Shown here piece by piece: positions 11,215-35,049 of a DNA stretch of 64,000 nucleotides (its first letter is position 1; each line of letters opens with the position of its first letter). Source of the stretch: Anaerolineales bacterium (GTDB lineage Bacteria; Chloroflexota; Anaerolineae; Anaerolineales; E44-bin32); the NCBI GenBank assembly GCA_034417075.1, contig DAOULU010000006.1, positions 138,283 to 202,282 on the forward strand. Reading direction: 5' to 3'. Under the pieces are notes generated by a model. That model saw only the letters and a list, made by a program, of their open reading frames with translations, had not been told where the DNA came from and searched no databases. The position numbers and the translations under genes are program-made.

Positions 11215-11350
11215 GCTGTCAGTCTGCCTGGTTTGATGACAATCGTTTCCCATCGTGAACTCCAATCATACCGCAATTCATGTAGGCAAGCCCGCGGGAA
11301 CAGATTCCCGGCTTTTCCATTCCATCCGATCAGCGCTGCAGTTGGACATC

Positions 11351-11379
11351 CGACAAATCAGACCCGATCGGGTTATAAT
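11351..11379 (+). promoter_or_regulatory. Sigma-70-type promoter of miaB, geometry implies a leaderless mRNA
   Basis: CGACAA (11351-56), 17 nt spacer, TATAAT (11374-79), 7 nt, then ATG 11387. No purine-rich SD in between. Confidence 0.45.
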
Positions 11380-11386
11380 CGTCCCC

Positions 11387-12739: not shown

Positions 12740-13106
12740 ACTTTGTAATCATTAACGCGAGAATAACTCCATACACTTCTCGCTGATGTCCGATCGATCA
12801 CGTCGGCGGGACAGCATGCTTAAAACGCTGCTAGACAATGGAAGAAACGTGCAAGTCGAAAGATTCCAGTCGGTATCGTAACGAATATATCGCGGCAATC
12901 CCATACATCAATGGATGTACAAGCGTGTCACAAACCGAGCGCTTTTAGCGTTTCAGAGTTGTGAAAAACCTGTTTTTCGGGAGGAGGCTCACTCTTACCG
13001 CATGCCAATATTCCGGTGGGTGGCCAGGTCTTTTTGAGTCCTTCGCTTTCGAATAGCGTCCAGTAGCCACATCTGGCACTGGACCGTGTGAAGAAGTGGG
13101 GAAAAC

Positions 13107-15743
13107 ATGAAGCAATATTCACTCCTCATACAACTGCTCCTCTTATCTACTGTTGTCGTGATGGCTGCAGCATTCACTCCGATCCCGGCTAACGCAAATG
13201 GTGATTGGATCGTGGTTAACACAGAAAACGATATGGACGATGGCGTCTGTGACAATACTCATTGTTCTCTCCGCGAAGCTATCAACCACGCCAACCTTCT
13301 TCCAGGGAAGCAAGGGATTTCCTTCAATATCCCGAATTCCAATCCCTTCGCCATTATCCAGGCGTGCGGTCCACTGCCAGATATCACGGACCCGGTCCTC
13401 ATCGACGGTACGTGGCCGCTCGGACCGAATGCGCCCCCCCGAGTCGTGATCCGACCCGACAAGAGACGAGAATGCCCCATAACTCCTCCCAGCCATGGAT
13501 TCTGGATCGTCGCTAATAACGTCACGATCCGCAACCTCAGCATGGTCAATTTCTTCAGCTTTCAGGCATTGGTATCCGGCGCCATCATCGTCGATACTGG
13601 AGCAAATGCAGTCATCGAAAACAACCTGCTCGGCATCTACCCCACCGGTTTCGTTCAAGGCAATTACAACGCCATTTATTTGAATGACGATCACCACACT
13701 GTACGGGACAATGTAATCTCCGGTAACTGGAATGGCATCCAGGTTCGCGGCGCGGATGTAACCATCCAGGGGAATTTTATCGGCACCGATATCTCCGGGA
13801 CTACAAGTAATTTTTCTCTACGCAATGCAATTGGAGTGTTTTTAACACTTTGGAGTGAGGCGAGTGTCATCGGTGGCGTCAATCCCGGTGAGATGAATTT
13901 GATCTCCAACAACGGAACCGGTATCGATGTCACATCCTCCCATAACACGATAATTGGGAATCAGATCGGAACGGACATTTCTGGAACTCTGGATCTGGGA
14001 AATTCCAATGGGATCATCATAACAGGACCCCGCAATACCATCGGTGGTGACCTGCCTGGAGAGGGCAATCTGATATCAGGTAATTCCATGGCAATTAGCA
14101 TCGGCACTGCCGGGGATAACAATATTATTCAAGGCAACTTGATCGGCACCGACTTCAGCGGCACCCAGCCCCTGGCAAATGCACAAGATAATTATCGCGG
14201 CATGGTTATCTTAGGTCAGGACAATTTGGTCGGCGGACTCAATGCTGGCGAGAACAATCTGATCGCCTACATTATTCACGAAGGCATTGAATTCGGAATG
14301 GATGCCAGCGACAATCAAATCCGCGGGAACACGATCATCCATAACGAACTCGGTGTGCTTGTTAAAACAGATCTCTGGGACACCGCGTTGAGAAACACAC
14401 TGACACAAAATGAGATTCACTCCAACTCTGGGTTGGGAATCGATCTCGAACCAGCCGGTGTTTCACCTAACGACCCCGGCGACACGGACAACGGCGGGAA
14501 TACGGTGCTCAACTTCCCGGAATTCAGTGTCAGCATGAATGCTGCCGCAGGAACGGCATGCCCCGAGTGTGTCGTTGAGCTCTTCTTTTCCGACAATGAC
14601 CCTTCAGGGTACGGCGAAGGTGAAACATTCATCGACAGCACCATTGCCGATACAAACGGCAACTTCATGATCCCATTAAATCTACCCATCTCCGGCTGTT
14701 CCCGTTTTTCCGCCACAGCGACGGACCTCCTGGGAAACACCTCCGAGTTTTCCGAAAACGTGGAGTTTGGTTTTTGTCTGGCGGTTGATCCCTGGGTGAT
14801 TCTCACTCCCTTGGTTGCTTTTGGGTTAAGCCTGGGAATCGGCTTCTTTGTTGGACGAAAACCCAACATCAATGGGCGCACAGCACTCGCTGCAGCCGGC
14901 GCTGCTGGTTTCGCTCTCGCGGGGACACTGTTTGTGATCTTGAGAGGACCCTCCGAACTTCCTCCACAGGGATCCGAAGACTCCGAAGTTTGGTCCAGAC
15001 TGCAATCCTGCAGTGAATATCTCGAACCGGATAGTATATCCCCCACCGAAGGGATGCTTTTCGAGCTGGAAGACGACCCCCTGTTCACCTGGGCTCCGCT
15101 CGACAACCTACCCCCGGGTTCGATCCGCTGGACGGTTGAACTGGCGAAACTTTCGGATTCACCGGAAAGCCAGAGCACGAGCGAGGCTCATCTGGCATTT
15201 TCGACATTCGGCATTCAACCCGATCCCGCAACAATCTTTAAATGGCGCCTCAGCGGAGAATTAGCCGATAAGGACGGTGGTGAATGGCGCTTCTTCTGCT
15301 CGCCCACAGACTGGCTGCCGTTTCAGATCGGCTTGCTTCCGGTCGTAAAGGCACCCTCCGATACACCCGAACCGTCACCCACACCCACTCCGACTCCAAC
15401 TTCTCAGTATTGCGTCTATACGGCGATCGAAAACGCCAATTGCCGCAGCAGTGATTACAAAGAATCGGAGCAAATCGCCATCCTCATGCAAGGTGAAAGT
15501 GCAGAACTCTTGAGCCTCAATCCCGAATTCACCCATGGACAGTTTTTACTCGATCAGGAGTTATGCTGGATCTGGCTCGGTTTGTTGGATGGGCCCGAAA
15601 ATCCCTTCGGCACGTGCAGCGTGCCGATCATCGATCCCGCACCGGCTTGCACGTCGGAACTGGATGAGCAAGCCTGTATACTCGCCGGCGGACAGATCAG
15701 TGAAACGCGCACGACAGCACCTTACTGCGTCTGCCCGGATTGA
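13107..15743 (+). CDS. Surface protein paralog 1 of 4: signal peptide, CSLREA motif, parallel beta-helix repeats, internal TM hairpin, C-terminal 8-Cys domain
   Basis: 878 aa. Signal peptide MKQYSLLIQLLLLSTVVVMAAA, VVNTENDMDDGVCDNTHCSLREAINHAN, many NxIxGNxIGTDxSGT repeats, GIDLEPAGVSPNDPGDTDNGGNTVLNFP, ATATDLLGNTSEFSEN. Two hydrophobic helices flank RKPNINGR. PT linker, then the Cys-rich end ..YCVCPD. Confidence 0.9.
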   Translation: MKQYSLLIQLLLLSTVVVMAAAFTPIPANANGDWIVVNTENDMDDGVCDNTHCSLREAINHANLLPGKQGISFNIPNSNPFAIIQACGPLPDITDPVLIDGTWPLGPNAPPRVVIRPDKRRECPITPPSHGFWIVANNVTIRNLSMVNFFSFQALVSGAIIVDTGANAVIENNLLGIYPTGFVQGNYNAIYLNDDHHTVRDNVISGNWNGIQVRGADVTIQGNFIGTDISGTTSNFSLRNAIGVFLTLWSEASVIGGVNPGEMNLISNNGTGIDVTSSHNTIIGNQIGTDISGTLDLGNSNGIIITGPRNTIGGDLPGEGNLISGNSMAISIGTAGDNNIIQGNLIGTDFSGTQPLANAQDNYRGMVILGQDNLVGGLNAGENNLIAYIIHEGIEFGMDASDNQIRGNTIIHNELGVLVKTDLWDTALRNTLTQNEIHSNSGLGIDLEPAGVSPNDPGDTDNGGNTVLNFPEFSVSMNAAAGTACPECVVELFFSDNDPSGYGEGETFIDSTIADTNGNFMIPLNLPISGCSRFSATATDLLGNTSEFSENVEFGFCLAVDPWVILTPLVAFGLSLGIGFFVGRKPNINGRTALAAAGAAGFALAGTLFVILRGPSELPPQGSEDSEVWSRLQSCSEYLEPDSISPTEGMLFELEDDPLFTWAPLDNLPPGSIRWTVELAKLSDSPESQSTSEAHLAFSTFGIQPDPATIFKWRLSGELADKDGGEWRFFCSPTDWLPFQIGLLPVVKAPSDTPEPSPTPTPTPTSQYCVYTAIENANCRSSDYKESEQIAILMQGESAELLSLNPEFTHGQFLLDQELCWIWLGLLDGPENPFGTCSVPIIDPAPACTSELDEQACILAGGQISETRTTAPYCVCPD

Positions 15744-15835
15744 AATACGCAGACGTAGGGAACGATGGACTCCGAAGCGGGCATTTCCTCACTGGGGAGG
15801 TGTTCGAAAGCAAGTCAGAAGGTTTGGAGATGAAA

Positions 15836-18565
15836 ATGAATAAGAAGCGGATCTTGTACCTTACCCTCGCCGTAACACTGTCGCTCTTCGCCCTCGTCAT
15901 GCAGCCCATGGCTTCCGGCTACGCCGGAGGGGGCATTATCGAGGTCAACACGATAGACGACACCGACGACGGCGTCTGCGATGCGGCACACTGCTCGCTG
16001 CGCGAGGCGATCAACTGGGCCAACACCATGGCCGGTACACCGACGATCACCTTCGATATCGCCGGTTCCGGCCCGCACGTCATCGACCTGTGCCATGCGC
16101 TGCCGCAGCTGACCAGTTCGGGCACGACCATCGACGGCACCACAGAACCGAGCTACACCGGAACCCCCGTTGTCGTCGTGCACCCGGCATTTCTTTCCAA
16201 TACCCCGCCGCCGCTGACCCACGTCCCGCCGTGTATTCCGCCTTCGGTCGGTCTGTGGATCGAAACCGACGACATCACCGTGAGAGGCTTGAGCATCGTC
16301 GGTTTTCGCCAGACATGGCCGGCGATCGCCGCCGGGATCGTGGTCGCCAACGGCAGCAACAACCTTATCGATGCAAATTACATCGGTCTGGACGCCAGCG
16401 GCTCACCGGACGGTAACCGCGACGGGATTCTCCTCGGTGCAACCGGCCAAGAGGTTCGTCACAACACCATCTCCGGCAACGACACCGGCATCCACGTCCG
16501 CGCCGGCGAACAAACAATAAACGCTAACCGCATCGGCACGGATTTCTCCGGCAGCACGAGCGGAACCGGAATGGGCAACTACCGCGGTATCCGTATCGAG
16601 CCGGCCGCGGATGCCAACCACATCGGATCCTCCGATCCCATACATAAGAACGTAATCTCCGGCAATACCGCCGTCGGGATCGAGGTGGAATCCGCCGACA
16701 ACATTATCCAGGGTAACTACATCGGCTGCAACATCAGCGGCGATACCGCATTGGGCCAACAGGAAGGTGTGGTGCTCGGAGGCAACAGCAATCTTCTCGG
16801 TGGGAATAATGCCGGTGATGGCAACCTGATCTCCGGAAACGACATCGATGGCGTGATCGTTGGTGGAAGCGGTCACCAAATCCTAGGCAACACGATCGGA
16901 GCAGACATCAACGGCCTCCCATTGGGAAATCAAAATGGCATCTTCAGCATACAAAGTGACAATGTCATCATCGGCACAAACGCCACTGCCTCTGGCAACC
17001 TGATCGCGCATAACAGCTTACATGGCGTGATGCTCTTGGCGAGATCCAAAACTTACCACATCGCCGGCAACACGATCACCCAGAATGGTGGTGACGGCAT
17101 TATATTGGGAACATTTTCCATGAGTCCCGATGTCCCCGAGCAAATCACCATCAACCGCAACAGCATATACGATAACGGAGGCCTGGGGATCGACCTTTAT
17201 CCAGCCGGTGTTACACCCAACGACCCGGGCGATGCGGATTCAGGCCCCAACACGCTGCTCAATTTCCCCGAGCTCAGCCAGGTGACGTCCACCAATGCAC
17301 AGGGAACCGTCTGCGCTAGCTGCCGTGTGGAGGCTTTCATCGCCGACGGCGATCCCACAGGATACGGCGAAGGCATGACCTTCGTCGGGGAAGCGTTCGC
17401 TGACTCCTCCGGCAGCTTGAGCCTTCCACTCGACGTGAACCTGGTTTCCACCTGCGATCTGATCACGACGCGAGCGACAGACGGGGCCGGCAACAGTTCC
17501 GAATTCTCGGAAAACATGCGCGTTTCGCCCTGCTTCACGCTACGTCGGCCGTGGTTATTTGCACCACCCATCCTGCTGGGTCTGCTGGGGTTGCTCGGAG
17601 GCCGCCGCGCAGGACGCGGCAAACCCGGGCTGGCTTCCGCCGCGGGCGGCGCTGCAATCGGCGTCGGGATCGGCGGCGGACTCATCCTCCTAGCGATCGT
17701 ACTGCCCTTTGTGCACATCGAAAAACCACAGGAAGACGTAGGCTTACCCGCCGTGCAGCAGCCCTGCGATCGTTTCCTCGATCCGGCCGGGCTCTCGCCT
17801 GCCGATGGATCGATATTCGAGATCGATGACAACGGCTGGGAATTTACTTGGAGTCCATCACCCGAGATGCCAGATGGAGAGTTCCGCTGGCTCGTCGAGC
17901 TGGCGTCAGCGGACGGCAGCATACAGCAATTGACGACCACCGGAAATTCGCTGCCCTTCCTGTCCTTCGATACTGAAATCTCACAAGGCGCCGTGTTCTC
18001 CTGGCGCCTCAGCGCCGAACAGGCCATCCCCGGTACGGACCGCTGGGAGCCCTTCTGTCGGCAGTTCGCTTGGCACACCTTCCAGTTCGGCGAGCGCCCA
18101 CCGCTCAACGCCCCACCCTGGACGCCCGACGAGTGGAGTGAACCCGAAGACACGCCGACACCAACTTCAACTCCCACAGAAACTCCAACGCCGACTCCCG
18201 AGGAATTGGTTTGTGTGTACGAGGCGCTGCAGAATTCAAACTGCCGCGCCAGCGACTACGCAGAAGCGTTACAAATTTCGATCCTCATGCAGGGCGAGAC
18301 GGCCGAACTGCTAGCCTTGAACCCCGAGTTCTCCTACGGCCAATTCAACCTCGGCCAGGGCGCGTGTTGGATTTGGCTTGGCTTGCTGGACGGACCGGAA
18401 AATCCATTCGATACCTGTGACGTACCGGTCGTCGATCCGCCCTCACCGCCTACGGAGACACCGCCCGCCTGCACACCGGACCTGGATGAAGAAGCGTGTG
18501 TGCTGAGTGGTGGCACGTGGTCGGAGGGCGTGAGTCGAGCGCCCTATTGTGTGTGTCCCGAGTGA
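15836..18565 (+). CDS. Surface protein paralog 2 of 4 (same architecture)
   Basis: Colinear with paralog 1 (HCSLREAINWAN, GIDLYPAGVTPNDPGDADSGPNTLLNFP, GNSSEFSEN, loop GGRRAGRGKPG, end YCVCPE). GGAG lies 6 nt before ATG 15836. ATG 15830 and the TTG-extended ORF from 15740 are less likely starts. Confidence 0.88.
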   Translation: MNKKRILYLTLAVTLSLFALVMQPMASGYAGGGIIEVNTIDDTDDGVCDAAHCSLREAINWANTMAGTPTITFDIAGSGPHVIDLCHALPQLTSSGTTIDGTTEPSYTGTPVVVVHPAFLSNTPPPLTHVPPCIPPSVGLWIETDDITVRGLSIVGFRQTWPAIAAGIVVANGSNNLIDANYIGLDASGSPDGNRDGILLGATGQEVRHNTISGNDTGIHVRAGEQTINANRIGTDFSGSTSGTGMGNYRGIRIEPAADANHIGSSDPIHKNVISGNTAVGIEVESADNIIQGNYIGCNISGDTALGQQEGVVLGGNSNLLGGNNAGDGNLISGNDIDGVIVGGSGHQILGNTIGADINGLPLGNQNGIFSIQSDNVIIGTNATASGNLIAHNSLHGVMLLARSKTYHIAGNTITQNGGDGIILGTFSMSPDVPEQITINRNSIYDNGGLGIDLYPAGVTPNDPGDADSGPNTLLNFPELSQVTSTNAQGTVCASCRVEAFIADGDPTGYGEGMTFVGEAFADSSGSLSLPLDVNLVSTCDLITTRATDGAGNSSEFSENMRVSPCFTLRRPWLFAPPILLGLLGLLGGRRAGRGKPGLASAAGGAAIGVGIGGGLILLAIVLPFVHIEKPQEDVGLPAVQQPCDRFLDPAGLSPADGSIFEIDDNGWEFTWSPSPEMPDGEFRWLVELASADGSIQQLTTTGNSLPFLSFDTEISQGAVFSWRLSAEQAIPGTDRWEPFCRQFAWHTFQFGERPPLNAPPWTPDEWSEPEDTPTPTSTPTETPTPTPEELVCVYEALQNSNCRASDYAEALQISILMQGETAELLALNPEFSYGQFNLGQGACWIWLGLLDGPENPFDTCDVPVVDPPSPPTETPPACTPDLDEEACVLSGGTWSEGVSRAPYCVCPE

Positions 18566-18647
18566 GAGGCTGCATGCGCATTCAGCGAACGGGAATTTCC
18601 GCAGTGAATAGACACGTGAAACCATCCTGCCCCGTAGGAGGTGCAAG

Positions 18648-21509
18648 ATGAATTCTCGATGGATGAAAAAGCTTGGATTGTGCGTATTGAGCACGTTGTG
18701 GCTCTTGATGTTCACCACACCTATGGCGACACAGGCTGGTGGTGGCGTGTTCGTCGTCAACACCACCGACGATCTGGACGACGGCACCTGTGACGCCACA
18801 CACTGCTCGCTGCGCGAAGCGATCAACGCGGTCAACACCTATGCGGGCACGCAGTACATCTACTTTGATATCCCCGGTCCAGGACCGCACGAGATCATGC
18901 TATGCTCGATGCTTCCATCCTTGAGCGACGACGGAACGTTGATCGACGGCACTTCGGAGCCCGATTATGGCGGCACGGTACCTGTGGTCGTGATCAAGCC
19001 GGGGATATTCAACGTGTCTTCCTATCCTGGCTGCACGCCACCACCCATCGGGATCTGGATCGCCGCCAGCGACATAACCGTGACCGGCCTGAGCATCATC
19101 GGTTTCAGGAGTCCTTCCGCATCCATCGCCGGCGGGATCGTGACTCACATGGGCTCGAACGTCACCATCCAGTGGAACTACATCGGCCTGGATCCCTCCG
19201 GAACTCCCGTCGGGAATCGAGACGGGATCCTGATAGGCTCCGAGGCGTCGCAGATCTATTCCAACCGCATCTCGGGCAACGTCATCGGCATTCACGTCTT
19301 CCGCAGCGACCACATCATCCGCTTGAACTACATCGGAACCGATCCCACGGGCACGTCGACCAGTCCTACGCTGAAAAATTCCGTCGGCATCCTGGTGGAC
19401 AATCCTTCTAGCAACGTGCATATCGGAGGCCCGAATCCCGCCTGGATGAACCTCATTTCGGGCAACGACACGGGCGTCCAAGTCGTTACGGACGGTAACT
19501 TCGTGACCAACAATCGCATCGGCGCAGACGCCAGCGGCAGCGCAGGCTTGGGCAATGACACCGGCGTATGGGTCACGGGCAACGGGAACCAAATCGAAGG
19601 CAATCAGGTCAGTGACAGCCAGATCGGCGTGCTGCTGGCCGGAAACAATAATCAAGTCTCCGGCAACTTCATTGGTACGGACGCAAGCGGCGACCTGGCG
19701 TTAGGCAACGACACCGGCGTCCACATCATCGGCAGTGATAACGTCATCGGCGGCGAGATTCCGATCATGCTCGTGCCGGGCAGCACGGCAGGAAACATCA
19801 TCTCCGGAAATGACACGGGCATCTTCCTCGGCCCGAACGCACAGAACAACTACATTAAAGGCAACAAGATCGGTGCCGGCAACAGCCCCGACTCGAGTCT
19901 GCCCAACACTACAGGCATCCTGCTCGATGGCGCCGACAACAACACGATCGGAGGTATCTATCTACCCATGGAAGCCAACTGGGTGATGCACAATATCCAG
20001 GACGGCATCCAGTTCATCACCACCGCCAGCGACAACCTGGTTCAAAACAATTACATCGCCTGGAACGACCGGGGCATCACCGCCGGCGCCACGACCGGTA
20101 CGTCGATCCAGAATACCTTTCACTACAATAACATCTACTATAACGATCAACTCGGTATCGACCTCTTCCCCTGGGGCGTGACCCCCAATGATCCGGGTGA
20201 CGCTGACAGCGGCGCCAATAATCTACAAAATTTCCCCGTGATCAGTTCGGCTACGACCACGACAGCTCAGGGGACCGCCTGTCTGGGCTGCACGGTGGAG
20301 ATTTTCGAAAGCGAAGAGGATCCCTCCGGATACGGTGAGGGCATATCACCTATCGGTGAAAGCCTTACTGACTCCTCAGGAAATTTCAGCATCAGTGTCG
20401 ATCCGCTCTCTACCGCAGGTGTCTGTGATTACGTAACCGCCACGGCGACCGACGCAAACGGCAACACCTCCGAATTTGCAGAGAACTTCCTGATCGGACC
20501 GTGCTTCACGTTCTCACCCCAACTTTTACTCTTCCTGGGTGTGGTTTTCGTGTTCGGTGGTGGGGCCGCCGGCGGGAGGCTCGGACGCGGTCGCGGCACG
20601 CGGCCAGGCCTGGGAACCGCTGCTGGCGCCGCGCTGGGCGGCGTGATCGGTGCCGGTCTGCTCCTCGCAACCTCCTTCATTCCAATTTTCCGTCTACCAC
20701 CAGAAGAGGAACATGTGGTCTCCGATGGCCTGACAGCGCTCGTCCCCTCCTGTAATGCCTACCTCGATCCGCAGGCATTCGTGCCGCAAGATGGCGCGAT
20801 CGTGCTCGACGAAAACTTCGACTTCGCATGGTCCTGGTTGAACGAGCCTTCGAACGGACGGTTCCGCTGGAGCCTGGATTTGAACGGGCCCGACGATTCC
20901 GGCCAGCAAACGACGGAGGATACTTCGCTTCCCTTCACTGCGTTTGGTTTCGCGGTCGACGACGGGGATCGATTCATCTGGCGACTGACTGGCGAGCAAT
21001 TCGACGACTCTTCCGCAGAATGGAAACCCTTCTGTGCACCATCGGCGTGGCTAACGTTCCAAATCGGACTTTCACCATTGCTGGCGCCACCGTGGACACC
21101 GGAAACGCCGGAAGAACTACCTCCGACGCCCACGAGCACACCCGAGTCTCCTGCGGGAGTCTGTCTGTACACAGCGGTACGTAACAGCAACTGCCGCGCC
21201 AGCGACTATCCGGAGTCGCTGCAGATCGATATCCTCATGCAGGGGGAATCGGCCGAACTCCTGGCCTTGAATCCCGAGTTCACCCACGGTAAATTCGAGC
21301 TCGATCACGGTCAGTGCTGGATCTGGCTGGGATTGCTGGAAGGTCCCGATAACCCATACGGCACGTGCAACGTCCCGGTCATCGATCCGCCGCCGCCACC
21401 GACCGCAACGCCACAAACCTGCACTGCGGATTTAGACGAGGACGCTTGCATCGCAAGTGGAGGCACCTGGTCGGTGACGGGCGCTGCGGGATGTGTATGC
21501 CCGGAGTGA
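18648..21509 (+). CDS. Surface protein paralog 3 of 4 (same architecture)
   Basis: 953 aa. SD AGGAGGTG upstream. HCSLREAINAVN, GIDLFPWGVTPNDPGDADSGANNLQNFP, ATATDANGNTSEFAEN, loop GGRLGRGRGTRPG, end GCVCPE. Confidence 0.9.
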   Translation: MNSRWMKKLGLCVLSTLWLLMFTTPMATQAGGGVFVVNTTDDLDDGTCDATHCSLREAINAVNTYAGTQYIYFDIPGPGPHEIMLCSMLPSLSDDGTLIDGTSEPDYGGTVPVVVIKPGIFNVSSYPGCTPPPIGIWIAASDITVTGLSIIGFRSPSASIAGGIVTHMGSNVTIQWNYIGLDPSGTPVGNRDGILIGSEASQIYSNRISGNVIGIHVFRSDHIIRLNYIGTDPTGTSTSPTLKNSVGILVDNPSSNVHIGGPNPAWMNLISGNDTGVQVVTDGNFVTNNRIGADASGSAGLGNDTGVWVTGNGNQIEGNQVSDSQIGVLLAGNNNQVSGNFIGTDASGDLALGNDTGVHIIGSDNVIGGEIPIMLVPGSTAGNIISGNDTGIFLGPNAQNNYIKGNKIGAGNSPDSSLPNTTGILLDGADNNTIGGIYLPMEANWVMHNIQDGIQFITTASDNLVQNNYIAWNDRGITAGATTGTSIQNTFHYNNIYYNDQLGIDLFPWGVTPNDPGDADSGANNLQNFPVISSATTTTAQGTACLGCTVEIFESEEDPSGYGEGISPIGESLTDSSGNFSISVDPLSTAGVCDYVTATATDANGNTSEFAENFLIGPCFTFSPQLLLFLGVVFVFGGGAAGGRLGRGRGTRPGLGTAAGAALGGVIGAGLLLATSFIPIFRLPPEEEHVVSDGLTALVPSCNAYLDPQAFVPQDGAIVLDENFDFAWSWLNEPSNGRFRWSLDLNGPDDSGQQTTEDTSLPFTAFGFAVDDGDRFIWRLTGEQFDDSSAEWKPFCAPSAWLTFQIGLSPLLAPPWTPETPEELPPTPTSTPESPAGVCLYTAVRNSNCRASDYPESLQIDILMQGESAELLALNPEFTHGKFELDHGQCWIWLGLLEGPDNPYGTCNVPVIDPPPPPTATPQTCTADLDEDACIASGGTWSVTGAAGCVCPE

Positions 21510-21582
21510 AACCGATTCGAGAAGATAACGCCATGGAGTCGATCGAAAACCGCAGCCAGAGATTGATGTAAGGGGTACTTTG

Positions 21583-24183
21583 ATGAGAACTCGCAAACAT
21601 GTTTCCCGAGCCTGGCTAGCCCTGTGCCTGCTGGCGATGATGACACTTGCTTTTCCGATCACCGCGGAGGCCAGCACCTTCGTCGTCAACACGGTCGACG
21701 ATCTCGACGACGGAAACTGCGACGCCGATCATTGCTCTCTGCGCGAGGCGATCAATGCCGCCAATGCCAACCCCGGTGCGGACACGATTGCCTTCGACAT
21801 CTTCGGCGCCGGGCCACACGTGATCAAACTGTGCAGCCTGCTGCCCATACTCACCGACGGCGGGACGACGATTGACGGCACGACGGAACCCAGTTATGCC
21901 GGGACGCCCGTCGTTACTTTAACGCCCTCTGCGGATCCGAGTTGTACCCGACCGCACATCGGCCTATGGATCCAATCCGACGGGAACGTGATCCGTGGGC
22001 TGCACACCATCGACTTCATGCATCCAACACTGCAGCACGAATCCGCCATCTACATCGAGCGCGGCGACGGAAACCTGATCGAGTTAAATCACATCGGCTA
22101 TCAACCTACCTGTTCGCTTTTCAACACACAATACGGTGTCCGCATCGACATGGACGCCGGAAACCAGCGCATTCTCAAAAACGTATTCAACTGTAACGGA
22201 ACGGCAATCGATATCTGGGCTGGCAGCCACGTGATCCGGGACAACCTCATCGGCGTCGATCCCTCCGGCACTACGGCCATCCTCAACGGTCTGGGCATCT
22301 ACGTCTACGAAACCGCCCACGGCTCGACCATTCAGGATAACGTGGTATCGGGCAACATCAGCGCCATGGTAGTCAATTCGGACGACAACAAGATCCTGGG
22401 AAACCGCGTTGGTACGGATTGGTCGACGAACATAGCCATCCCCAATCAAGGCGGCATCAAGGTGAACGGCGATCACAACCGCGTCGGCGGCACGAATCCC
22501 GGCGAGGCAAACATCATCGCCGCCAACACCAGCATTGGTCTTGATCTGTACTGCGGCGCGGAATACAACCAGGTGTATGGCAATATCATCGGCACCAATC
22601 TTTCGGGAACCATCATCATGGGCAACCAGTACGGTGTCACCATTATGGGGAACACGAACATCATCGGGGGTATCGGCTCAGGCGAAGCAAACCGCATCCT
22701 CTTCAGCCAGGAAGCCGGGCTCAGCTTGTACGCTTTGGCGCACAAAAACCGCATCATTGGAAACGAGATCGCTTACGGCCACACGCAGGGCATTCTGGGA
22801 ACGAGTTCGATGGGCTTTCCCGAATCCAACACCTTCAGCCGAAACAGCATCCATCACAATCGTGCCCTGGGAATCGATTTGGAACCTGCGGGCGTCACGC
22901 CAAATGATCCGGGAGACGCGGATTCCGGCCCCAACACACTGCTGAACTTTCCCGTGCTCCAATCCGCCAACGTGAACACGGCCGAAGGAGACGCCTGCCC
23001 GGGCTGTACCGTGGAGATCTTCATCGCCGATTCGGGCAAAGGCGCATTCGGCGAAGGTATGAACTTCGCGGGAAGCGGCAACGCCGATCCGAGCGGTCAT
23101 TTCTCGATCCCGTTAAGCGGGGTCGGTTTCTGCGATCCGCTCACCGCCACCGCCACTGACGGCGCAGCCAACACCTCCGAGTTTGCCAAGAACATCCTGG
23201 CCAGCTGCCTGACGCTCGTATTCCCTTGGCCCGATCTCCTTTTGCTGGCGTTCATTTTTGCTGGCGCCCTGGGCAACGGGCGTCGCGGCCGAGGTAGATC
23301 GCCGGGTCGATATGCCGCCATCGGCGGCGCTGCTGGCGCAGTATTCGGCATCGCCCTGCTGACCCTGGGCAGTGCGCTTCCTAACATGCACTTGGAATTG
23401 CTCCCTCCAAAAGGGGAACCGAAGAGTGAACCACTTTGCAGCGAGTTGCTTCTACCGGATGGGTACGCTCCACCGGCAGGCGCCGTGTTCCAAACCAGCG
23501 AAGACCCATTGCTTTCCTGGACGCCGGGACCCGGCGCCGCCGACGGGATCGTCTGGCAGGTAGAACTCAGTGCACCTGACGGCTCAATTTTGAATCAAAC
23601 GACTCAGGAGACAAGCATCGCCTTCAGCAGCTTCATGTTCCCCACTCAACCAGGATTTTACCGCTGGCGCATCACCGCCAGAGAGGGCAATGCCCCAGGA
23701 GCCCTGGGGAAAGCCTTATGTTCACCGACATCGTGGATGCCGCTTTCCTTCGAAGGACCACAGCGCGAGGAAACACCGGAAGAAACGCCGACATCGACCC
23801 CCACGCCGACTCCCACAGAAGAGACGTCAGCATGTGTCTACACCGCGCTGCAAAATGCCAACTGCCGGGAGAGCGACTACGTCGAATCGGATCAGATGGC
23901 CATTCTCATGCAGGGCGAAAGCGCCGAACTGTTGGCGTTGAACCCCGAGTTTACCCACGGTGAGTTCGAGGTCGATCAGCACCAATGCTGGATCTGGCTC
24001 GGGTTGCTGGACGGTCCTGAAAACCCATACGGCACATGCGACATTCCAGTCGTTGATCCGCCTCCACCGCCGACCGCGACGCCACAGATTTGCACAGAGG
24101 ATTTGAACGAGGAAGATTGCGTGGCCAGCGGCGGTGTATGGTCCGAGGGAATCACGGATCGCCTCTACTGCATCTGTCCTTAA
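21583..24183 (+). CDS. Surface protein paralog 4 of 4 (same architecture)
   Basis: HCSLREAINAANANPGADTIAFDI, GIDLEPAGVTPNDPGDADSGPNTLLNFP, ATATDGAANTSEFAKN, loop NGRRGRGRSPGR, end YCICP. ATG at 21583 (TTG at 21580 also possible). Confidence 0.9.
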   Translation: MRTRKHVSRAWLALCLLAMMTLAFPITAEASTFVVNTVDDLDDGNCDADHCSLREAINAANANPGADTIAFDIFGAGPHVIKLCSLLPILTDGGTTIDGTTEPSYAGTPVVTLTPSADPSCTRPHIGLWIQSDGNVIRGLHTIDFMHPTLQHESAIYIERGDGNLIELNHIGYQPTCSLFNTQYGVRIDMDAGNQRILKNVFNCNGTAIDIWAGSHVIRDNLIGVDPSGTTAILNGLGIYVYETAHGSTIQDNVVSGNISAMVVNSDDNKILGNRVGTDWSTNIAIPNQGGIKVNGDHNRVGGTNPGEANIIAANTSIGLDLYCGAEYNQVYGNIIGTNLSGTIIMGNQYGVTIMGNTNIIGGIGSGEANRILFSQEAGLSLYALAHKNRIIGNEIAYGHTQGILGTSSMGFPESNTFSRNSIHHNRALGIDLEPAGVTPNDPGDADSGPNTLLNFPVLQSANVNTAEGDACPGCTVEIFIADSGKGAFGEGMNFAGSGNADPSGHFSIPLSGVGFCDPLTATATDGAANTSEFAKNILASCLTLVFPWPDLLLLAFIFAGALGNGRRGRGRSPGRYAAIGGAAGAVFGIALLTLGSALPNMHLELLPPKGEPKSEPLCSELLLPDGYAPPAGAVFQTSEDPLLSWTPGPGAADGIVWQVELSAPDGSILNQTTQETSIAFSSFMFPTQPGFYRWRITAREGNAPGALGKALCSPTSWMPLSFEGPQREETPEETPTSTPTPTPTEETSACVYTALQNANCRESDYVESDQMAILMQGESAELLALNPEFTHGEFEVDQHQCWIWLGLLDGPENPYGTCDIPVVDPPPPPTATPQICTEDLNEEDCVASGGVWSEGITDRLYCICP

Positions 24184-24240
24184 CCCGCAGGATCGGGTGG
24201 GAGGTTGAAACTTGAAGCCGATTTGTACGCCACGAGCAAC

Positions 24241-24269
24241 TTGTCGAAACCAACAGGTCAATGTAGCAT
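24241..24269 (+). promoter_or_regulatory. Putative sigma-70 promoter of lipoprotein cassette A
   Basis: TTGTCG, 17 nt, TAGCAT. The same geometry and nearly the same sequence recur upstream of cassette B. Confidence 0.45.
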
Positions 24270-24352
24270 CCTGATACGGACTTACTGCCATTCCCAGTCG
24301 ATTTCATGGCCGGTATACGGAGAAGAAGACATTAAATTGAAGGAGAACCAAA

Positions 24353-25498
24353 ATGAGCCTTCCCTCAAGAATAAAATCAACCACACTCGTTTTCATACTG
24401 GTGACGAGCATCATCCTTGCGGCATGTCATTTCCCAGGAATGGGCCCCACGCCGGACTTGTTCGCCACCTCCGCTGCAGAAACCGTTTCCGCACGGCTTA
24501 CGCAACCAGTGGAACCCGGCACAGATGAGACAACAGAGCCCGAGCCGCCCGTGATCGCCACGACCGAAGCCCCACCGACAGAGGAACCCCCTACGCCAAC
24601 GACTACGCTCACCCCCACGATCACGCAGACCACAATCCCCTGCGATCGCGCCAGTTTCGTTTCGGACGTTACCATCCCCGACGGGGAGGAATTAGAACCG
24701 AACGAGAGTTTCACCAAAACCTGGCGGTTGAAAAATAACGGTTCCTGCACCTGGACCTCCAGCTACGCGCTCACTTTCGACAGCGGTGATTCGATGAGCG
24801 GACCTGCATCCAAACAGCTTACCAGTGGAACTGTAGCACCTGGCGCCACAATGGACGTCTCCGTCAATCTGACGGCGCCGAGTTCGCCGGGAACGTACAA
24901 AGGTTACTGGAAACTGCGCAACGGATCGGGAGTGAATTTCGGAATTGGAACTGGCGGCGTAAATCCTTTCTGGGTTGAAATCAAGGTCGTTCCCAACACA
25001 ACCACGGTTACCATTCCCATGAAAGAAATGGAAAGCGGACAAGTGCAGTCCACCGGCTCGACAGGCTTTGGAAGGTACGTGGGGGATAGCCACACGAATA
25101 CGTCCACACAAGCCTTCGTCAGCTTCGATATAAGTGCGATACCTTCGGACGCCATCATCACGGAGGTCACGATAAAGATTAGTAATTTCAACGATACCGG
25201 AGATCCATTTGGCGATTTGGGACCTATGTTCATCTACAAAGATGATTACGGTAGCTTGGATTCGACCGACTATGTAAGCAGCACTCCAGGGACAGGTCGG
25301 CTTATCGCCTGGAATTCAACCTCTCAATTGGGAACCACGATCCCCGACAACGACATGGTCAATGCGGTTCAGAGTAAAGTGGGTAGCAGTCGCTTTAGAG
25401 TTCGATTCCAATTCGCCAACGACACGAACAATGATAACGGCGCCGACTATCTGGAACTGGTCTCGATTGTGATCAAGGTAACCTACTACACGCCATAG
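24353..25498 (+). CDS. Lipoprotein with NBR1-like Ig domain and C-terminal beta-rich domain (cassette A)
   Basis: Lipobox ILAAC, PT/E-rich linker. The CDRASFVSDVTIPDGEELEPNESFTKTWRLKNNGSCTWTSSYALTFDSGD...PGTYKGYWKLRN pattern is typical of bacterial 'next to BRCA1'-type Ig-like domains. SD GAAGGAG upstream. Confidence 0.85.
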   Translation: MSLPSRIKSTTLVFILVTSIILAACHFPGMGPTPDLFATSAAETVSARLTQPVEPGTDETTEPEPPVIATTEAPPTEEPPTPTTTLTPTITQTTIPCDRASFVSDVTIPDGEELEPNESFTKTWRLKNNGSCTWTSSYALTFDSGDSMSGPASKQLTSGTVAPGATMDVSVNLTAPSSPGTYKGYWKLRNGSGVNFGIGTGGVNPFWVEIKVVPNTTTVTIPMKEMESGQVQSTGSTGFGRYVGDSHTNTSTQAFVSFDISAIPSDAIITEVTIKISNFNDTGDPFGDLGPMFIYKDDYGSLDSTDYVSSTPGTGRLIAWNSTSQLGTTIPDNDMVNAVQSKVGSSRFRVRFQFANDTNNDNGADYLELVSIVIKVTYYTP

Positions 25499-25517
25499 GC
25501 GCATTACGCAAGTTTAT

Positions 25518-25557
25518 AAAATCCCCGCCATTCTCATCCACGGCAGGGATTTTTTTA
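25518..25557 (+). terminator. Rho-independent terminator of cassette A
   Basis: ATCCCCGCC (25521-29) pairs with GGCAGGGAT (25542-50) with one mismatch, followed by a T6 run. Confidence 0.7.
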
Positions 25558-25727
25558 TTGCCGCCGAAGGTATTGCCAGCGGCCTTGAAGGCCATATCTC
25601 AGCGATCCGCTCACCTCCGCTGACGCAGACGGTGCTGCCAACACAATCTCCCATTTTGTATAAGCCCATGATACACAAGATTGGTTGTCCGGCAGGAATG
25701 CAGTACGGCCTATGCGCAAAGGGCCAC

Positions 25728-25756
25728 TTGTCAAAATCCGCAGGTCGCTGTAGCAT
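25728..25756 (+). promoter_or_regulatory. Putative sigma-70 promoter of lipoprotein cassette B
   Basis: TTGTCA, 17 nt, TAGCAT. Homologous to 24241-24269, with the shared block CAGGTCnnTGTAGCATCCTGrTAC. Confidence 0.45.
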
Positions 25757-25831
25757 CCTGGTACTTGCAGCCTGCCATGTGCAACGCCCCAGGCGCACGG
25801 ATAAGTAGATTTCAAAACGAAGGAGTTCGAG

Positions 25832-26980
25832 ATGAGCCCTCCGGCACGATTGAGAACAACACTCATTTTAATGCTCGCGATCAGTATCGTCCTATCGGCG
25901 TGCAATTTCCCCGGTATGGGTGCCACACCGGATCTGTTCGCCACATCTGCAGCGCAAACCGTCGCCGCCCGTCTCACCCAACCAGCGGGACCGGGCAATG
26001 ATGGGACCACGCCACCCGAGCCACCGCAGATTGCAACAACCGAAGCCCCTCCAACGGAGGAACCACCTACGCCCACGTCGACCATAACGCTGACGCCCAC
26101 GATCACGCAGACCACAATCCCCTGCGATCGCGCCAGCTTTATCACGGACGTCACCATCCCCGACGGAGAAGAATTGGAACCGAACGAGAGCTTCACCAAG
26201 ACCTGGCGCCTGAAAAACAACGGCTCCTGCACCTGGACCTCCAGCTATGCGCTCATTTTCGACAGCGGCGATTCCATGGGAGGACCCGCATCCAAACAGC
26301 TTACCAGCGGGACCGTTGCACCCGGTGCCATTATGGACGTCTCCGTCAACTTAACGGCGCCCAGTTCGCCGGGTACCTACAAGGGATACTGGAAACTGCG
26401 CAACGGTTCCGGGGTAAATTTCGGCATCGGTACCGGCGGCACCAATCCGTTCTATGTCGAAATCAAAGTCGTGCCCAACACGGCCACGACTACGGTTCCT
26501 CTCGTCGTTGGCGAAAGCGGTCAGGTCACGAAAAGCACCTATATCTCCGGGGATAAAATTGCCGGAGATAACGGATCGAACGATTCGTCCCAGGCTTTCC
26601 TTAGCTTCAACATCACCGGAATCCCGTCGGATGCCGTCATTACGGAAGTCGTCATCGATCTCGGTGACTTCACCGTGATCGGGACGCCGTTCTCAGCTTT
26701 GGGGCCACTGTTTATCTACAAGGATGATTATGGCGGTTTGGATGCCTCCGACTTCGTCAACAGCACACCATCTTCCGGCCGACTCATAGCCTGGAATTCA
26801 ACATCAAGCTTGGGGAACGCCGTCTCGGATAACGACATGGTCAACGCCCTGCAAACCAAAGTGGGATCGAGTCGCTTCAGATTGCGTCTGCAGTTCAACA
26901 AACAAACCGACAACGATGGCGCAAGCGATCACCTGACTTTCAACACTGTGATCCTCAAAGTCACCTACTACACGCCCTGA
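25832..26980 (+). CDS. Lipoprotein with NBR1-like Ig domain and C-terminal beta-rich domain (cassette B, paralog of 24353-25498)
   Basis: Lipobox VLSAC. The N-terminal two thirds are near-identical to cassette A and the C-terminal third is clearly more diverged. SD GAAGGAG upstream. Confidence 0.85.
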   Translation: MSPPARLRTTLILMLAISIVLSACNFPGMGATPDLFATSAAQTVAARLTQPAGPGNDGTTPPEPPQIATTEAPPTEEPPTPTSTITLTPTITQTTIPCDRASFITDVTIPDGEELEPNESFTKTWRLKNNGSCTWTSSYALIFDSGDSMGGPASKQLTSGTVAPGAIMDVSVNLTAPSSPGTYKGYWKLRNGSGVNFGIGTGGTNPFYVEIKVVPNTATTTVPLVVGESGQVTKSTYISGDKIAGDNGSNDSSQAFLSFNITGIPSDAVITEVVIDLGDFTVIGTPFSALGPLFIYKDDYGGLDASDFVNSTPSSGRLIAWNSTSSLGNAVSDNDMVNALQTKVGSSRFRLRLQFNKQTDNDGASDHLTFNTVILKVTYYTP

Positions 26981-27003
26981 CCGCACGTAGAAATTAGCGA
27001 TGA

Positions 27004-27040
27004 AAAATCCCCGCGAATCACCCAACGTCGCGGGGATTTT
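27004..27040 (+). terminator. Rho-independent terminator of cassette B
   Basis: Perfect 12-bp stem AAAATCCCCGCG / CGCGGGGATTTT with a 13-nt loop. The stem is related to the cassette A terminator stem. Confidence 0.7.
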
Positions 27041-27117
27041 CGCTCTCCAGTGAAGATCATATTGTGTATAAGTTAATCGCATTTCAAACGGTTGAATTGG
27101 CAGTTTTAAAGAACGCG

Positions 27118-27126
27118 TGATAGATT
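27118..27126 (+). promoter_or_regulatory. Extended -10 element (TGaTAGATT) 6 nt upstream of ATG 27133, suggesting a leaderless start
   Basis: TGATAGATTcaagttATG. No SD between the -10 element and the start codon. Confidence 0.4.
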
Positions 27127-27132
27127 CAAGTT

Positions 27133-28809
27133 ATGGTTGCGAATGTGCTCGTAGTTGAAGAGACGGAAGAATTCGGGTCTTTGATCCGTAACGCGCTCGA
27201 AGACACCGGGCGGTATCAGGTGTCACTGGCGATGAACGCTGACGAGGCGATCGAGATCGGAGATCGGGAAAATATCCACTTGCTAATCATCGACTTCGAT
27301 CTCTCCGAAGCCGATGCACCGGCCTGTATTCAACGCATCCAATCCACCAATCCGGACATGGCCATTATCGCCATTCCGCCCAACAACGATCCACACGATC
27401 CTGCCTTTTCAAGTCTCTCAATCCGCGGCGTGCTGACGAAGCCTTTTTACCTTCCCGAACTCAACGAGATCGTCTCCGCAGCGATAGATCTGCCAACGCA
27501 GGCTGTGGAAACGGATCAGATCCGGGAATCCATCCCGCAGGAACCCCCTTTCAGCGAGGCCGCGGAACCACCAACGCCCTGGCCTAACGACGTGGATCAA
27601 GCCACGCAGCACCTCGCCAGGGTATGCGGCGATACGTCTGCCGAAGCGTTGATCCTCTTGCATCACGGCCAGCGATGGGCACAAACGGGTGGAATTACAC
27701 CGGATCAAGCCGAAGGACTTGCGGTCAAGATTGCTGAAATTGGAGTCGGCGCTGGCGCCCGTGGAGCAATCACCACCCTGACTCGTTTACCAGGCACAAA
27801 GCGGGATTGCATCCTGTATGCCAATGGTCTGATACCGAATTGGATTTTGGCGCTGGTTTATCCCTCCGGCACATCCTTCGGGATCATCCGCCGCCAGGCT
27901 GGGCACACCGCGGACAGACTCAAATACATGGACCTGGATGATCACGAGGAAGACCTCCCTCCCATACCGACGTCCGCGCCCGATACCGCACCGATTTCAG
28001 CTCGAGACGAAGAAGATACATCGTTCGATGAAATCTTCGGTGTGGAGCCAGATGCCCAGGAAATTCCGTTTTTCGAAGATCTCGACCTGCCTCCCAAACC
28101 GATCCCTGCGCCCGATACCGCACCGATTTCTGCTCGAGACGAAGAAGATACATCGTTCGATGAAATCTTCGGTGCGGAGCCAGATGCCCAGGAAATTCCG
28201 TTTTTCGAAGATCTCGATCTTCCCCCTCCGGAGCCGGATGAAACGCCAGCGAAGGTTGACGAGGACCGGATCGAAGAAGCGGACACCGCTGCAGCGATTC
28301 CGGGGGATTGGGTGCCGGACAAACCCAAACCTGAATCCCACCTGCCTTTCCTCGAAGAAGGCGCCTTCCCGAGTACGGACTCCGCATCAACAGCGCTGGA
28401 GCCCATCCCGCTGCCCGACGCGGAGTACTACCTCCCCGTCACTGCAGTGCTTGTGCCTCGGTTCCCGGAACACCGCCTGACGGGTCCCCTTGTGGAAAAT
28501 CTACAGGAATGGGTGGTTCGCCTTTGCCTGGCGTGGGATTGGCGCGCGGATGAAGTGTCGATCGAACCCGATTATCTCTGCCTGACGATGAGCATTTCCC
28601 CGGAGACGGCGCCTTCGAACGCGGTTCTCCGGCTTCGGGATGATCTATCACAGCGGATACTCAGCGCATTTCCCGAATTTGTAGACGACCTGCCTTCCCG
28701 ACGTTTTTGGGCGCGCAGCTACCTGCTGATCACCGGCGGACCACCGCCAGCGAAACGACTGCAAGAGTTCGTCGAAACCACACGCAAGAGCCAAGGGATC
28801 GAAATCTAA
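27133..28809 (+). CDS. Receiver (REC)-like domain, acidic repeat linker, C-terminal IS200/TnpA (Y1 transposase)-like domain lacking the HUH motif
   Basis: N-terminus VLVVEETEEF...HLLIIDFDL...LTKPF resembles a CheY-like receiver, with EE in place of the DD pocket. The C-terminus aligns by eye to IS200 TnpA: YLPVTAVLVPRF (YHIVFxxKYR), PDYLCLTMSISPE (xDHxHxLxxxPP), RFWARSYLLITGG (FWxRGYYxxTVG). Confidence 0.7.
   Translation: MVANVLVVEETEEFGSLIRNALEDTGRYQVSLAMNADEAIEIGDRENIHLLIIDFDLSEADAPACIQRIQSTNPDMAIIAIPPNNDPHDPAFSSLSIRGVLTKPFYLPELNEIVSAAIDLPTQAVETDQIRESIPQEPPFSEAAEPPTPWPNDVDQATQHLARVCGDTSAEALILLHHGQRWAQTGGITPDQAEGLAVKIAEIGVGAGARGAITTLTRLPGTKRDCILYANGLIPNWILALVYPSGTSFGIIRRQAGHTADRLKYMDLDDHEEDLPPIPTSAPDTAPISARDEEDTSFDEIFGVEPDAQEIPFFEDLDLPPKPIPAPDTAPISARDEEDTSFDEIFGAEPDAQEIPFFEDLDLPPPEPDETPAKVDEDRIEEADTAAAIPGDWVPDKPKPESHLPFLEEGAFPSTDSASTALEPIPLPDAEYYLPVTAVLVPRFPEHRLTGPLVENLQEWVVRLCLAWDWRADEVSIEPDYLCLTMSISPETAPSNAVLRLRDDLSQRILSAFPEFVDDLPSRRFWARSYLLITGGPPPAKRLQEFVETTRKSQGIEI
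27952..28215 (+). repeat. In-frame tandem direct repeat, 2 x 132 bp (44 aa each), plus a partial third start
   Basis: Unit 1 27952-28083 is DLPPIPTSAPDTAPISARDEEDTSFDEIFGVEPDAQEIPFFEDL. Unit 2 28084-28215 is DLPPKPIPAPDTAPISARDEEDTSFDEIFGAEPDAQEIPFFEDL. DLPPPEPD follows. Confidence 0.95.
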
Positions 28810-28885
28810 CCCACAGCCTCCCCCACGAATTGCGCCTGGTGCTACAATTTAATACCTCACCGAATAATCCAAGGGAGCGTCCAGG

Positions 28886-35041: not shown

Positions 35042-35049
35042 AGCCTTCC

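Follow-up and report, generated by a model that had tools for sequence, protein, structure and literature searches.

Based on a comparison of about 170 related loci, all of them on metagenome-assembled contigs, we suggest that the seven genes between miaB and polA in an Anaerolineales bacterium probably represent three layers that differ in age and in transcriptional organisation and that are not mobile. These genes lie in a 64-kb stretch of DNA (contig DAOULU010000006.1, positions 138,283 to 202,282), referred to here as the window, in whose coordinates all positions are given. In this model, which draws on gene content, synteny, orthology and the loss of catalytic residues, the three layers share a long-standing variable slot between miaB and a REC/Y1-polA pair. 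The first layer (12740-24183) would be a tandem array of four anciently diverged CSLREA/beta-helix paralogs, CS1 to CS4, exported by signal peptide. The second layer (24184-27040) would consist of two lipoprotein cassettes, LP1 and LP2, with an NBR1-FW-like Ig domain, and one to three such genes are present at the site in many relatives that lack CS genes. The third layer (27133-28809) would be an atypical response regulator, REC/Y1, with an exapted, dead IS200-type transposase domain as its output. The array would have reached this site, or have been kept only there, in the clade of the window by ordinary rearrangement and without a mobile element.

An earlier reading of this DNA, here called the original prediction, had placed seven + strand genes and an unusually long leader of 367 nucleotides (nt) between miaB and polA. 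The map of open reading frames (ORFs) and the family scans bear this out: miaB ends at 12739, polA starts at 28886 and seven long ORFs lie on the + strand in between. The original prediction had also regarded these genes as a single block inserted between housekeeping genes and as acting together, and neither claim agrees with the synteny and the predicted transcription signals described below.

Synteny of the miaB-polA interval

A PolA scan of species-representative genomes gave 80 Anaerolineales loci, onto which the window proteins were mapped, and further loci were found through homologs of CS1 and of REC/Y1. The distance from miaB to polA varies between 167 nt and 16 kb. In L003, L024 and L042, the two genes adjoin with a gap of 167-193 nt; they are separated by a single LP gene in L004, L006 and L074, by two LP genes in L008 and L080, and by one to three LP genes followed by REC/Y1 in L010, L015, L016, L017 and L027. 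Two far more distant loci, L088 and L089, have the order queG, LysM, miaB, LP, LP, REC/Y1, polA, TPR, DAC without a CS gene, and in L089 an esterase gene is additionally present between LysM and miaB. CS genes are present at the miaB-polA site only in L001, L002/L083, L005, L030, L081, L082, L084 and L085. From the PolA scan, this group includes only L001, L002, L005 and L030, which are the closest relatives of the window (polA 83-90%). In L081, miaB is followed by four CS genes and then by LP1, and the order CS...LP1-LP2-REC/Y1 is kept in L001, L002/L083, L005, L030 and L081. As judged from these gene orders, the 11.4-kb CS array alone is clade-specific at the site, and the last 4.5 kb of the block are ancestral.

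The notion of a single inserted block is difficult to reconcile with these arrangements, since miaB-LP-LP-REC/Y1-polA-TPR-DAC exists without CS (L088, L089, L010, L015 and L027) and since REC/Y1 is tied to polA, as detailed in the next section. The comparison of miaB...polA synteny among relatives, which the original prediction had proposed as its own check, speaks against it for the CS genes: in related genomes these genes are found unlinked from the others, an outcome that the original prediction had named as refuting, and the LP and REC/Y1 genes recur without them.

CS-type genes are also found away from the miaB-polA site. The assembly of L003 (GCA_011192015.1), in which miaB and polA adjoin, has a tandem pair of CS-type genes at a locus unrelated to this site (L086), and a further metagenome contig (L087) carries a solo CS-type gene in yet another, unrelated context; both loci are without LP or REC/Y1. 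In a neighbor-joining tree calculated without support values, L086_a groups within the CS2 clade and L087 within the CS1 clade, and L086_b is placed beside the CS4 clade. Because CS-type genes at other loci fall in or next to the CS clades, the paralog family appears to be older than its present position, and it appears to have been rearranged without recognisable mobility functions.

The REC/Y1 protein and its link to polA

REC/Y1 (27133-28809, + strand) encodes a receiver (REC) domain, a Roadblock-like segment, a disordered linker and a catalytically dead IS200-fold (Y1) domain. In the polA-ascertained loci, the median distance from the REC/Y1 stop codon to polA is 42 nt and the distance is at most 200 nt in 44 of 49 loci, with upstream genes that vary. 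The same link is seen from the other side. A scan of metagenome contigs with a REC/Y1 protein profile, which is independent of polA, found the polA start less than 250 nt downstream in 65 of the 67 loci with enough downstream sequence. The loci concerned are within L007-L072 and L088-L169. By its synteny, REC/Y1 belongs with polA and not with the surface genes. In the window, the 76-nt spacer between REC/Y1 and polA contains the extended -10-like element TGCTACAAT (28840-28848, + strand), and this element is kept across lineages as TGCTACAAT, TGTTACAAT, TGATACAAT or TGCTAGAAT. Because the element lies in a short spacer, the upstream part of the polA promoter would be located inside the 3' end of REC/Y1.

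The receiver domain is recognised by Pfam (45.5 bits; cut-off 30.2) and by Foldseek, with fold matches to Spo0F and XynC at a root-mean-square deviation of ~2.2 Å. Among 21 homologs, D54 is invariant and K103 nearly invariant. The domain is atypical in that it has an invariant P82 in the Thr/Ser region, with the switch residue placed by eye, and keeps only one acidic residue in the beta1-alpha1 loop. No histidine kinase gene is adjacent to REC/Y1, the nearest being a gene for a GAF/HATPase protein at 38605-40239. In the AlphaFold2 model, residues 154-270 have an order of secondary-structure elements that fits Roadblock/LC7 (pLDDT ~80-90). In Foldseek, REC together with this segment aligns to Rag/Gtr GTPase-roadblock chains, and the segment has no Pfam match even at E <= 10. 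The disordered linker contains a tandem duplication of 132 nt (27952-28215, + strand) with copies that are 94% identical, which gives a repeat of 44 amino acids (aa), and the lengths of REC/Y1 homologs (514, 558 and 602 aa) agree with one, two and three copies of this repeat, respectively. Conserved short motifs, DWVP, LPFL and DLDLPPPDP, were also observed in the linker.

The C-terminal 125 aa match Y1_Tnp (40.1 bits; cut-off 23) and have the TnpA fold, with a Foldseek E-value of 3.7e-9 and target TM-scores of 0.7-0.82 to 2ec2, 2xm3 and 2fyx. In an alignment to the ISDra2 and Sulfolobus TnpA structures, the window protein has Y-L-C in place of the HUH motif and Phe in place of the catalytic Tyr. 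Of 86 homologs, 78 have Phe at the Tyr position and only one keeps the HxH motif. Even so, no other part of the protein is as well conserved as the Y1 domain (83-92% identity vs 55-79% for the linker), which is modelled intact by AlphaFold2 (pLDDT 84-92). Because the catalytic residues are lost, yet the domain is the best conserved and is confidently modelled, the Y1 domain appears to be exapted and unable to cleave DNA, and not to be the remnant of an insertion sequence (IS).

That REC/Y1 is instead a functionless, decaying IS200/IS605 remnant fused by chance to a response regulator is barely credible. Such a remnant would be expected to score as a transposase with Pfam and PHROG and to have lost its catalytic residues, and REC/Y1 has both properties; however, conservation and confident folding of the Y1 domain are not what decay would leave behind, and more than 100 loci retain REC/Y1 with its architecture and its neighbour unchanged, at overall identities as low as ~26%. 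Moreover, REC/Y1 is single-copy in the window, and no tnpB, IS ends with subterminal hairpins or family of hairpins similar to repetitive extragenic palindromes (REPs) were found there. Thus, REC/Y1 resembles the IS200/IS605 TnpA proteins and the REP-associated tyrosine transposases in its C-terminal Y1_Tnp match and TnpA fold and differs from them in lacking both HUH histidines and the catalytic tyrosine, in being fused to REC and a Roadblock-like domain, and in being syntenic with polA without IS ends, tnpB or REP arrays.

We tentatively propose, as an idea that we hold to be somewhat less than evenly probable, that REC/Y1 is an exapted transposase, perhaps keeping the ability to bind single-stranded or hairpin DNA, and that it acts as a phosphorylation-controlled partner of DNA polymerase I (Pol I) across the Anaerolineales. 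In this scenario, REC/Y1 could control the polA promoter, the upstream part of which would lie in its own 3' end. A second possibility is that it recruits Pol I to structured lagging-strand DNA via the DWVP, LPFL and DLDLPPPDP motifs of the linker. In the searchable literature, we found no description of a fusion of a receiver to an HUH-fold output or of a dedicated polA regulator. Likewise, a literature search on REC-IS200 fusions, inactive Y1 transposases and regulation of polA in Anaerolineae returned no description of the REC/Y1 architecture or of its link to polA, and the terms response regulator, receiver and CheY do not occur in a survey of the superfamily (PMC6006769).

The CS array

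The array consists of CS1 (13107-15743; 878 aa), CS2 (15830-18565; 911 aa), CS3 (18648-21509; 953 aa) and CS4 (21583-24183; 866 aa), all on the + strand. All four proteins exceed the curated cut-off of 25 bits for CSLREA (TIGR04214), with 38.3, 40.0, 42.8 and 46.7 bits, respectively. CS2 most likely starts at the ATG at 15830 rather than at the TTG at 15740, because its orthologs are 911-913 aa long and the signal peptide starts at this ATG; the start of CS4 is likely at 21583.

The four proteins share 41-44% pairwise identity and a common architecture. A signal peptide is directly followed by the CSLREAI motif in all four, and then come right-handed beta-helix repeats and an Ig-like domain ending in a GNTSEF motif. 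Two adjacent hydrophobic helices flanking an Arg-rich loop come next, and a C-terminal region of 260 aa with invariant cysteines and a Pro/Thr linker completes the protein. The beta-helix is recognised by Pfam in CS1 (NosD, 28.1 bits; cut-off 23.6) and CS2 (Beta_helix, 44.5 bits; cut-off 25.9); CS3 and CS4 stay below threshold and can be aligned to CS1 and CS2 over their whole length. The beta-helix region of CS2 had no meaningful match in a PDB sequence search. CS1 has, in addition to the signal peptide, two hydrophobic segments in the middle of the protein. AlphaFold2 (pLDDT 88) models the C-terminal 260 aa of CS4 as a small barrel preceded by a beta-sandwich, and these residues are predicted to comprise an FN3/Ig-like sandwich, the Pro/Thr linker, an SH3-like barrel and a Cys-rich tail. 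Foldseek relates this region to FN3/Ig and SH3 domains, with target TM-scores of ~0.63-0.77 for the SH3 domains (CPE1231, the SH3b-bearing YrvJ and NlpC2) and E-values of 1.5e-3 or above throughout; Pfam gave no match to the C-terminal domain even in a relaxed scan.

Because the positively charged loop, the cysteines and the Pro/Thr linker fit such a topology, we infer that the central two-helix hairpin with its Arg-rich cytoplasmic loop is the membrane anchor and that both large domains are outside the cell. The hairpin would then display two ectodomains, an N-terminal one composed of the beta-helix and the Ig-like domain and a C-terminal one composed of the FN3-like sandwich, the Pro/Thr linker, the SH3-like barrel and the Cys-rich tail. 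CSLREA proteins (TIGR04214; PF13229/PF05048) number their relatives in the thousands, and in Anaerolineales metagenome-assembled genomes many of these bear the name CSLREA domain-containing protein. All four CS proteins have the signal peptide and CSLREAI motif of this family and, by Pfam match or by alignment, its beta-helix repeats. Unlike that family, they add the predicted central transmembrane hairpin and the predicted 260-aa FN3-like/SH3-like/Cys-rich C-terminal ectodomain, and this full architecture was seen in only ~35 full-length relatives. Our literature search found CSLREA mentioned solely for a substrate of type II secretion in Acinetobacter, and it found no experimentally defined function of the family.

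The CS genes have one-to-one orthologs in L081, with identities of 66% for CS1, 81% for CS2, 86% for CS3 and 85% for CS4; CS2 is 80-81% identical to its orthologs in L081 and L083. As these one-to-one orthologs imply that the duplications predate these lineages, the duplications appear to be ancient and not the result of a recent expansion. Thus, the suggestion in the original prediction of expansion by duplication is right in that the paralogs and the LP cassettes arose by duplication, but not in the sense of a recent event. Recent gene conversion among the paralogs was considered and dropped: the best DNA identity between them is 60-76% over 141-300 nt. By its ortholog identity, CS1 is the fastest-evolving paralog, and its GC content at third codon positions (GC3) is 0.58 compared to 0.70 in CS2-CS4. 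The low GC3 together with the low ortholog identity suggests relaxed or diversifying selection on CS1, the first gene of the array.

The number of CS genes varies between loci. L083 has three and lacks the CS3 ortholog, and L084 and L085 have five CS-type genes and, ahead of the array, an SdrD_B-domain gene that is absent from the window. The fifth CS-type copy (15698-17869 in L084; 13202-15356 in L085) is overlapped by small minus-strand gene calls, looks truncated or degraded and is probably a pseudogene. A possible trace of a further copy was observed in the LP1-LP2 spacer, in which 46 nt (25599-25644) are 80% identical to the CS4 coding sequence at 23129-23174 (in translation, SDPLTSADADGAANT vs CDPLTATATDGAANT in CS4), and similar stretches are present in the LP1-LP2 spacer of L001, L005 and L083. 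This stretch may be a relic of a CS-type gene, and its significance is marginal.

The lipoprotein cassettes

LP1 (24353-25498, + strand) and its paralog LP2 (25832-26980, + strand) encode lipoproteins with an NBR1/ILRUN-like Ig (FW) domain (PF16158; 101.1 and 95.4 bits, respectively; gathering cut-off 28 bits). Their lipoboxes, judged by inspection, are ...SIILAAC|HFPG in LP1 (ILAAC) and ...SIVLSAC|NFPG in LP2 (VLSAC), and orthologs have L-(A/T)-G-C-N-(F/Y)-P. The two proteins are 73% identical overall, with 94% identity in the Ig domain and 57% in the C-terminal domain. In the PDB, the LP sequences match human ILRUN (6vhi; E = 3.7e-16) and NBR1 (E = 2.5e-12). The diverged C-terminal domain of LP1 has faint similarity to DNRLRE (E = 0.0013) and CBM96 (E = 0.06), both below cut-off. 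The eukaryotic domain is described as binding protein cargo in autophagy (PMC9233695). LP1 and LP2 both match this domain above cut-off; unlike in NBR1 and ILRUN, it follows a Pro/Thr linker in a bacterial lipoprotein and precedes a diverged domain whose CBM96/DNRLRE similarity is faint.

Each LP gene is preceded by a sigma-70-like putative promoter element, TTGTCG-17-TAGCAT for LP1 (24241-24269, + strand) and TTGTCA-17-TAGCAT for LP2 (25728-25756, + strand). In the window, L001, L005 and L083, an invariant TTGTCR-17-TAGCAT with invariant flanks and a conserved 5' untranslated region is found upstream of both LP genes. Both genes are also followed by a terminator-like hairpin with a U-run, at 25518-25560 for LP1 (-13.8 kcal/mol, z = -3.4) and at 27004-27040 for LP2 (-20.6 kcal/mol, z = -4.3), both on the + strand, and in each case none of 200 shuffled sequences was as stable. 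These signals suggest that LP1 and LP2 are self-contained cassettes comprising promoter, 5' untranslated region, ORF and terminator.

Transcriptional organisation of the interval

The CS array is preceded by a non-coding leader of 367 nt (12740-13106, + strand) in which we found no credible ORF. The length that the original prediction had singled out as unusual is kept in L081 and L083, in which the leader is 375-380 nt long. An Rfam E-value scan of the leader gave no match, and a riboswitch-type leader is unsupported because the sequence folds only marginally better than its shuffles (z-score of -1.8). The leader contains the invariant element TGTCACAA-N15-CGTTTCAG (12926-12956, + strand), 151-181 nt upstream of CS1. 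This element has one site in the window, even with up to three mismatches; L081-L085 each have a single copy ahead of their first CS gene, at 150-195 nt across arrays, and none of 84 other loci examined has it. In L084 and L085, the SdrD_B gene separates it from miaB. We regard the element as a candidate promoter or operator of the CS array. A search for a regulon shared by CS, LP and REC/Y1 through this motif gave only this single site. In the spacers between the CS genes (73-86 nt), no promoter-like or terminator-like signals were found, and CS1-CS4 are probably one transcription unit.

REC/Y1 is preceded by a putative promoter, TTGGCA-18-TAGATT (27097-27126, + strand). Because the signals of the leader, LP1, LP2, REC/Y1 and polA are separate and the LP genes have terminators, the predicted signals argue for at least five separate transcription units and not for one. 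This bears on the proposal in the original prediction that the seven genes act together: LP1, LP2, REC/Y1 and polA each have their own promoter-like element and LP1 and LP2 have terminator hairpins, LP and REC/Y1 occur without CS, and CS-type genes occur without LP or REC/Y1 (L086 and L087). Thus, the seven genes are not a demonstrable functional unit.

Accordingly, we consider it unlikely that the seven genes are one co-functional envelope module in which four beta-helix proteins and two lipoproteins are under the control of REC/Y1. The genes are co-oriented, the order CS...LP1-LP2-REC/Y1 is conserved in the loci listed above, the gap between CS4 and LP1 has no detected terminator, and the CS and LP families are both predicted to be extracytoplasmic. 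In addition, the metagenome protein P0137 (1271 aa) joins CSLREA beta-helix, N_BRCA1_IG and Laminin_G_3 domains in one polypeptide. However, many relatives have LP and REC/Y1 at the site without CS, CS-type genes at other loci do without both, and REC/Y1 goes with polA even where all upstream genes differ. Moreover, neither the two LP genes nor REC/Y1 are preceded by the CS leader element, and LP1 and LP2 are each equipped with a terminator and an invariant promoter-like element of their own.

Tests for a genomic island

The original prediction had concluded that the block is not a classic mobile island, and here our analyses agree with it. In scans of the seven proteins with Pfam, NCBIfam and PHROG, the dead Y1 domain was the sole match of this kind, and no gene for an integrase, a recombinase or another mobility function was identified. 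PADLOC gave no match in the block, and PHROG matched nothing but the REC and Y1 domains encoded by the seventh gene. There are no tRNA or tmRNA genes in the 64-kb window and no Rfam families in the whole window at gathering cut-offs. A search for direct or inverted repeats at the boundaries found none of note, giving only paralog-derived repeats and short chance inverted repeats. The scan of k-mer composition that the original prediction had proposed revealed no anomaly in the block: the tetranucleotide z-score is at most 1.6 relative to the window, and the GC content of 0.51-0.60 compares to ~0.55 for the window, with CS1 alone slightly lower. Finally, the block is not present or absent as a unit among relatives; only the CS part varies as a unit, and LP and REC/Y1 are distributed separately. 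Thus, the block fails every test for a classical genomic island. It resembles such islands in being a large same-strand run of non-housekeeping genes between conserved genes with a patchy distribution among relatives, and it is unlike them in the lack of an integrase, tRNA gene, direct repeats and compositional shift and in that ~4.5 kb of it are ancestral to the family at the miaB-polA site.

An old, horizontally acquired island whose mobility genes have decayed, comprising the block or at least the CS array, would fit the presence of the array in one clade and its absence from the site in the next relatives, its position between conserved housekeeping genes, the lower GC3 of CS1 and a CS copy number that ranges from three to five. 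We nevertheless consider this origin very unlikely. Neither an integrase, tRNA gene or flanking repeat nor a phage or defence match accompanies the array, and its tetranucleotide composition stays within a z-score of 1.6 of the window. Other Anaerolineales also have full-length CS-type proteins and members of the paralog clades, some of them at other loci, and therefore the CS family appears to be native to the order.

Boundary genes and other features of the window

The upstream boundary gene miaB (11255-12739, + strand) matches TIGR01574 (399.6 bits; cut-off 355.3) and contains UPF0004, Radical_SAM and TRAM domains. Its true start is probably some 30-45 codons downstream of 11255; miaB orthologs are 441-467 aa long. 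The downstream boundary gene polA (28886-31663, + strand), encoding DNA polymerase I, matches PRK05755 (1112 bits) and has all four Pfam domains, and its relatives place the window in the Anaerolineales, phylum Chloroflexota. Minus-strand ORFs within the seven genes are shadow ORFs of GC-rich coding sequence. A cluster look-up did not return names for the window's own proteins.

Downstream of polA and a TPR gene, a diadenylate cyclase (DAC) gene and a YbbR-domain gene (34166-36297) are followed by der/engA; the polA-TPR-DAC run is also kept in L088 and L089. The only compositional outlier of the window (52-58 kb; GC content of 0.42 at 55-56 kb and tetranucleotide z-score of 3.0) contains a 550-aa ORF without Pfam match (54739-56391), which may be foreign or evolve rapidly. 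A perfect palindrome with a 14-bp stem (TGTAGGGGCGGGTTTGAAACCCGCCCCTACA; 57847-57877) is located in the gap between two convergent genes, Band_7 (56620-57663, + strand) and FAD-binding (57960-59795, - strand), and is probably a bidirectional terminator.

Discussion

The three-layer model has to be weighed against several observations. A gene that is absent from the 10-kb flank of a metagenome contig is not necessarily absent from the genome. The neighbor-joining tree is without support values and, as a consequence, the change may have been either a gain at the site or a loss elsewhere. The promoter and terminator calls are based on consensus or folding and are unvalidated in Chloroflexota, and the lack of a terminator after CS4 makes read-through from CS4 into LP1 possible. 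For the predicted topology of the CS proteins, CS2 has only a weak first hydrophobic segment in its hairpin, and the Foldseek E-values for the C-terminal domain are all at or above 1.5e-3. Lastly, the adjacency of CS, LP and REC/Y1 is kept within the clade, and the domains of the CS and LP families are combined in P0137.

No domain fusion other than P0137 hints that the CS and LP families might act on a common substrate, and a functional link between CS and LP proteins may therefore exist.

The arrangement noted in the original prediction is genuine and, for the most part, unremarkable: a lineage-specific paralog array beside older neighbours. For annotation, the lesson is that non-housekeeping genes lined up on one strand between two core genes do not have to form an island or an operon; in this case, synteny splits an old core (LP, LP, REC/Y1 and polA) from one clade-specific array. 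The CS array itself provides a defined architecture, with two ectodomains and a central membrane hairpin as predicted here, for an uncharacterised and very abundant family of surface proteins in Chloroflexota, and this architecture is of modest interest for the biology of the envelope of filamentous Anaerolineae. The near-obligate pairing of REC/Y1 with polA is a noteworthy by-product of the analysis and more valuable than the array. If this pairing is functional, then it would be a clear case of domestication of a bacterial transposase and would represent an unusual signalling input to DNA replication or repair.

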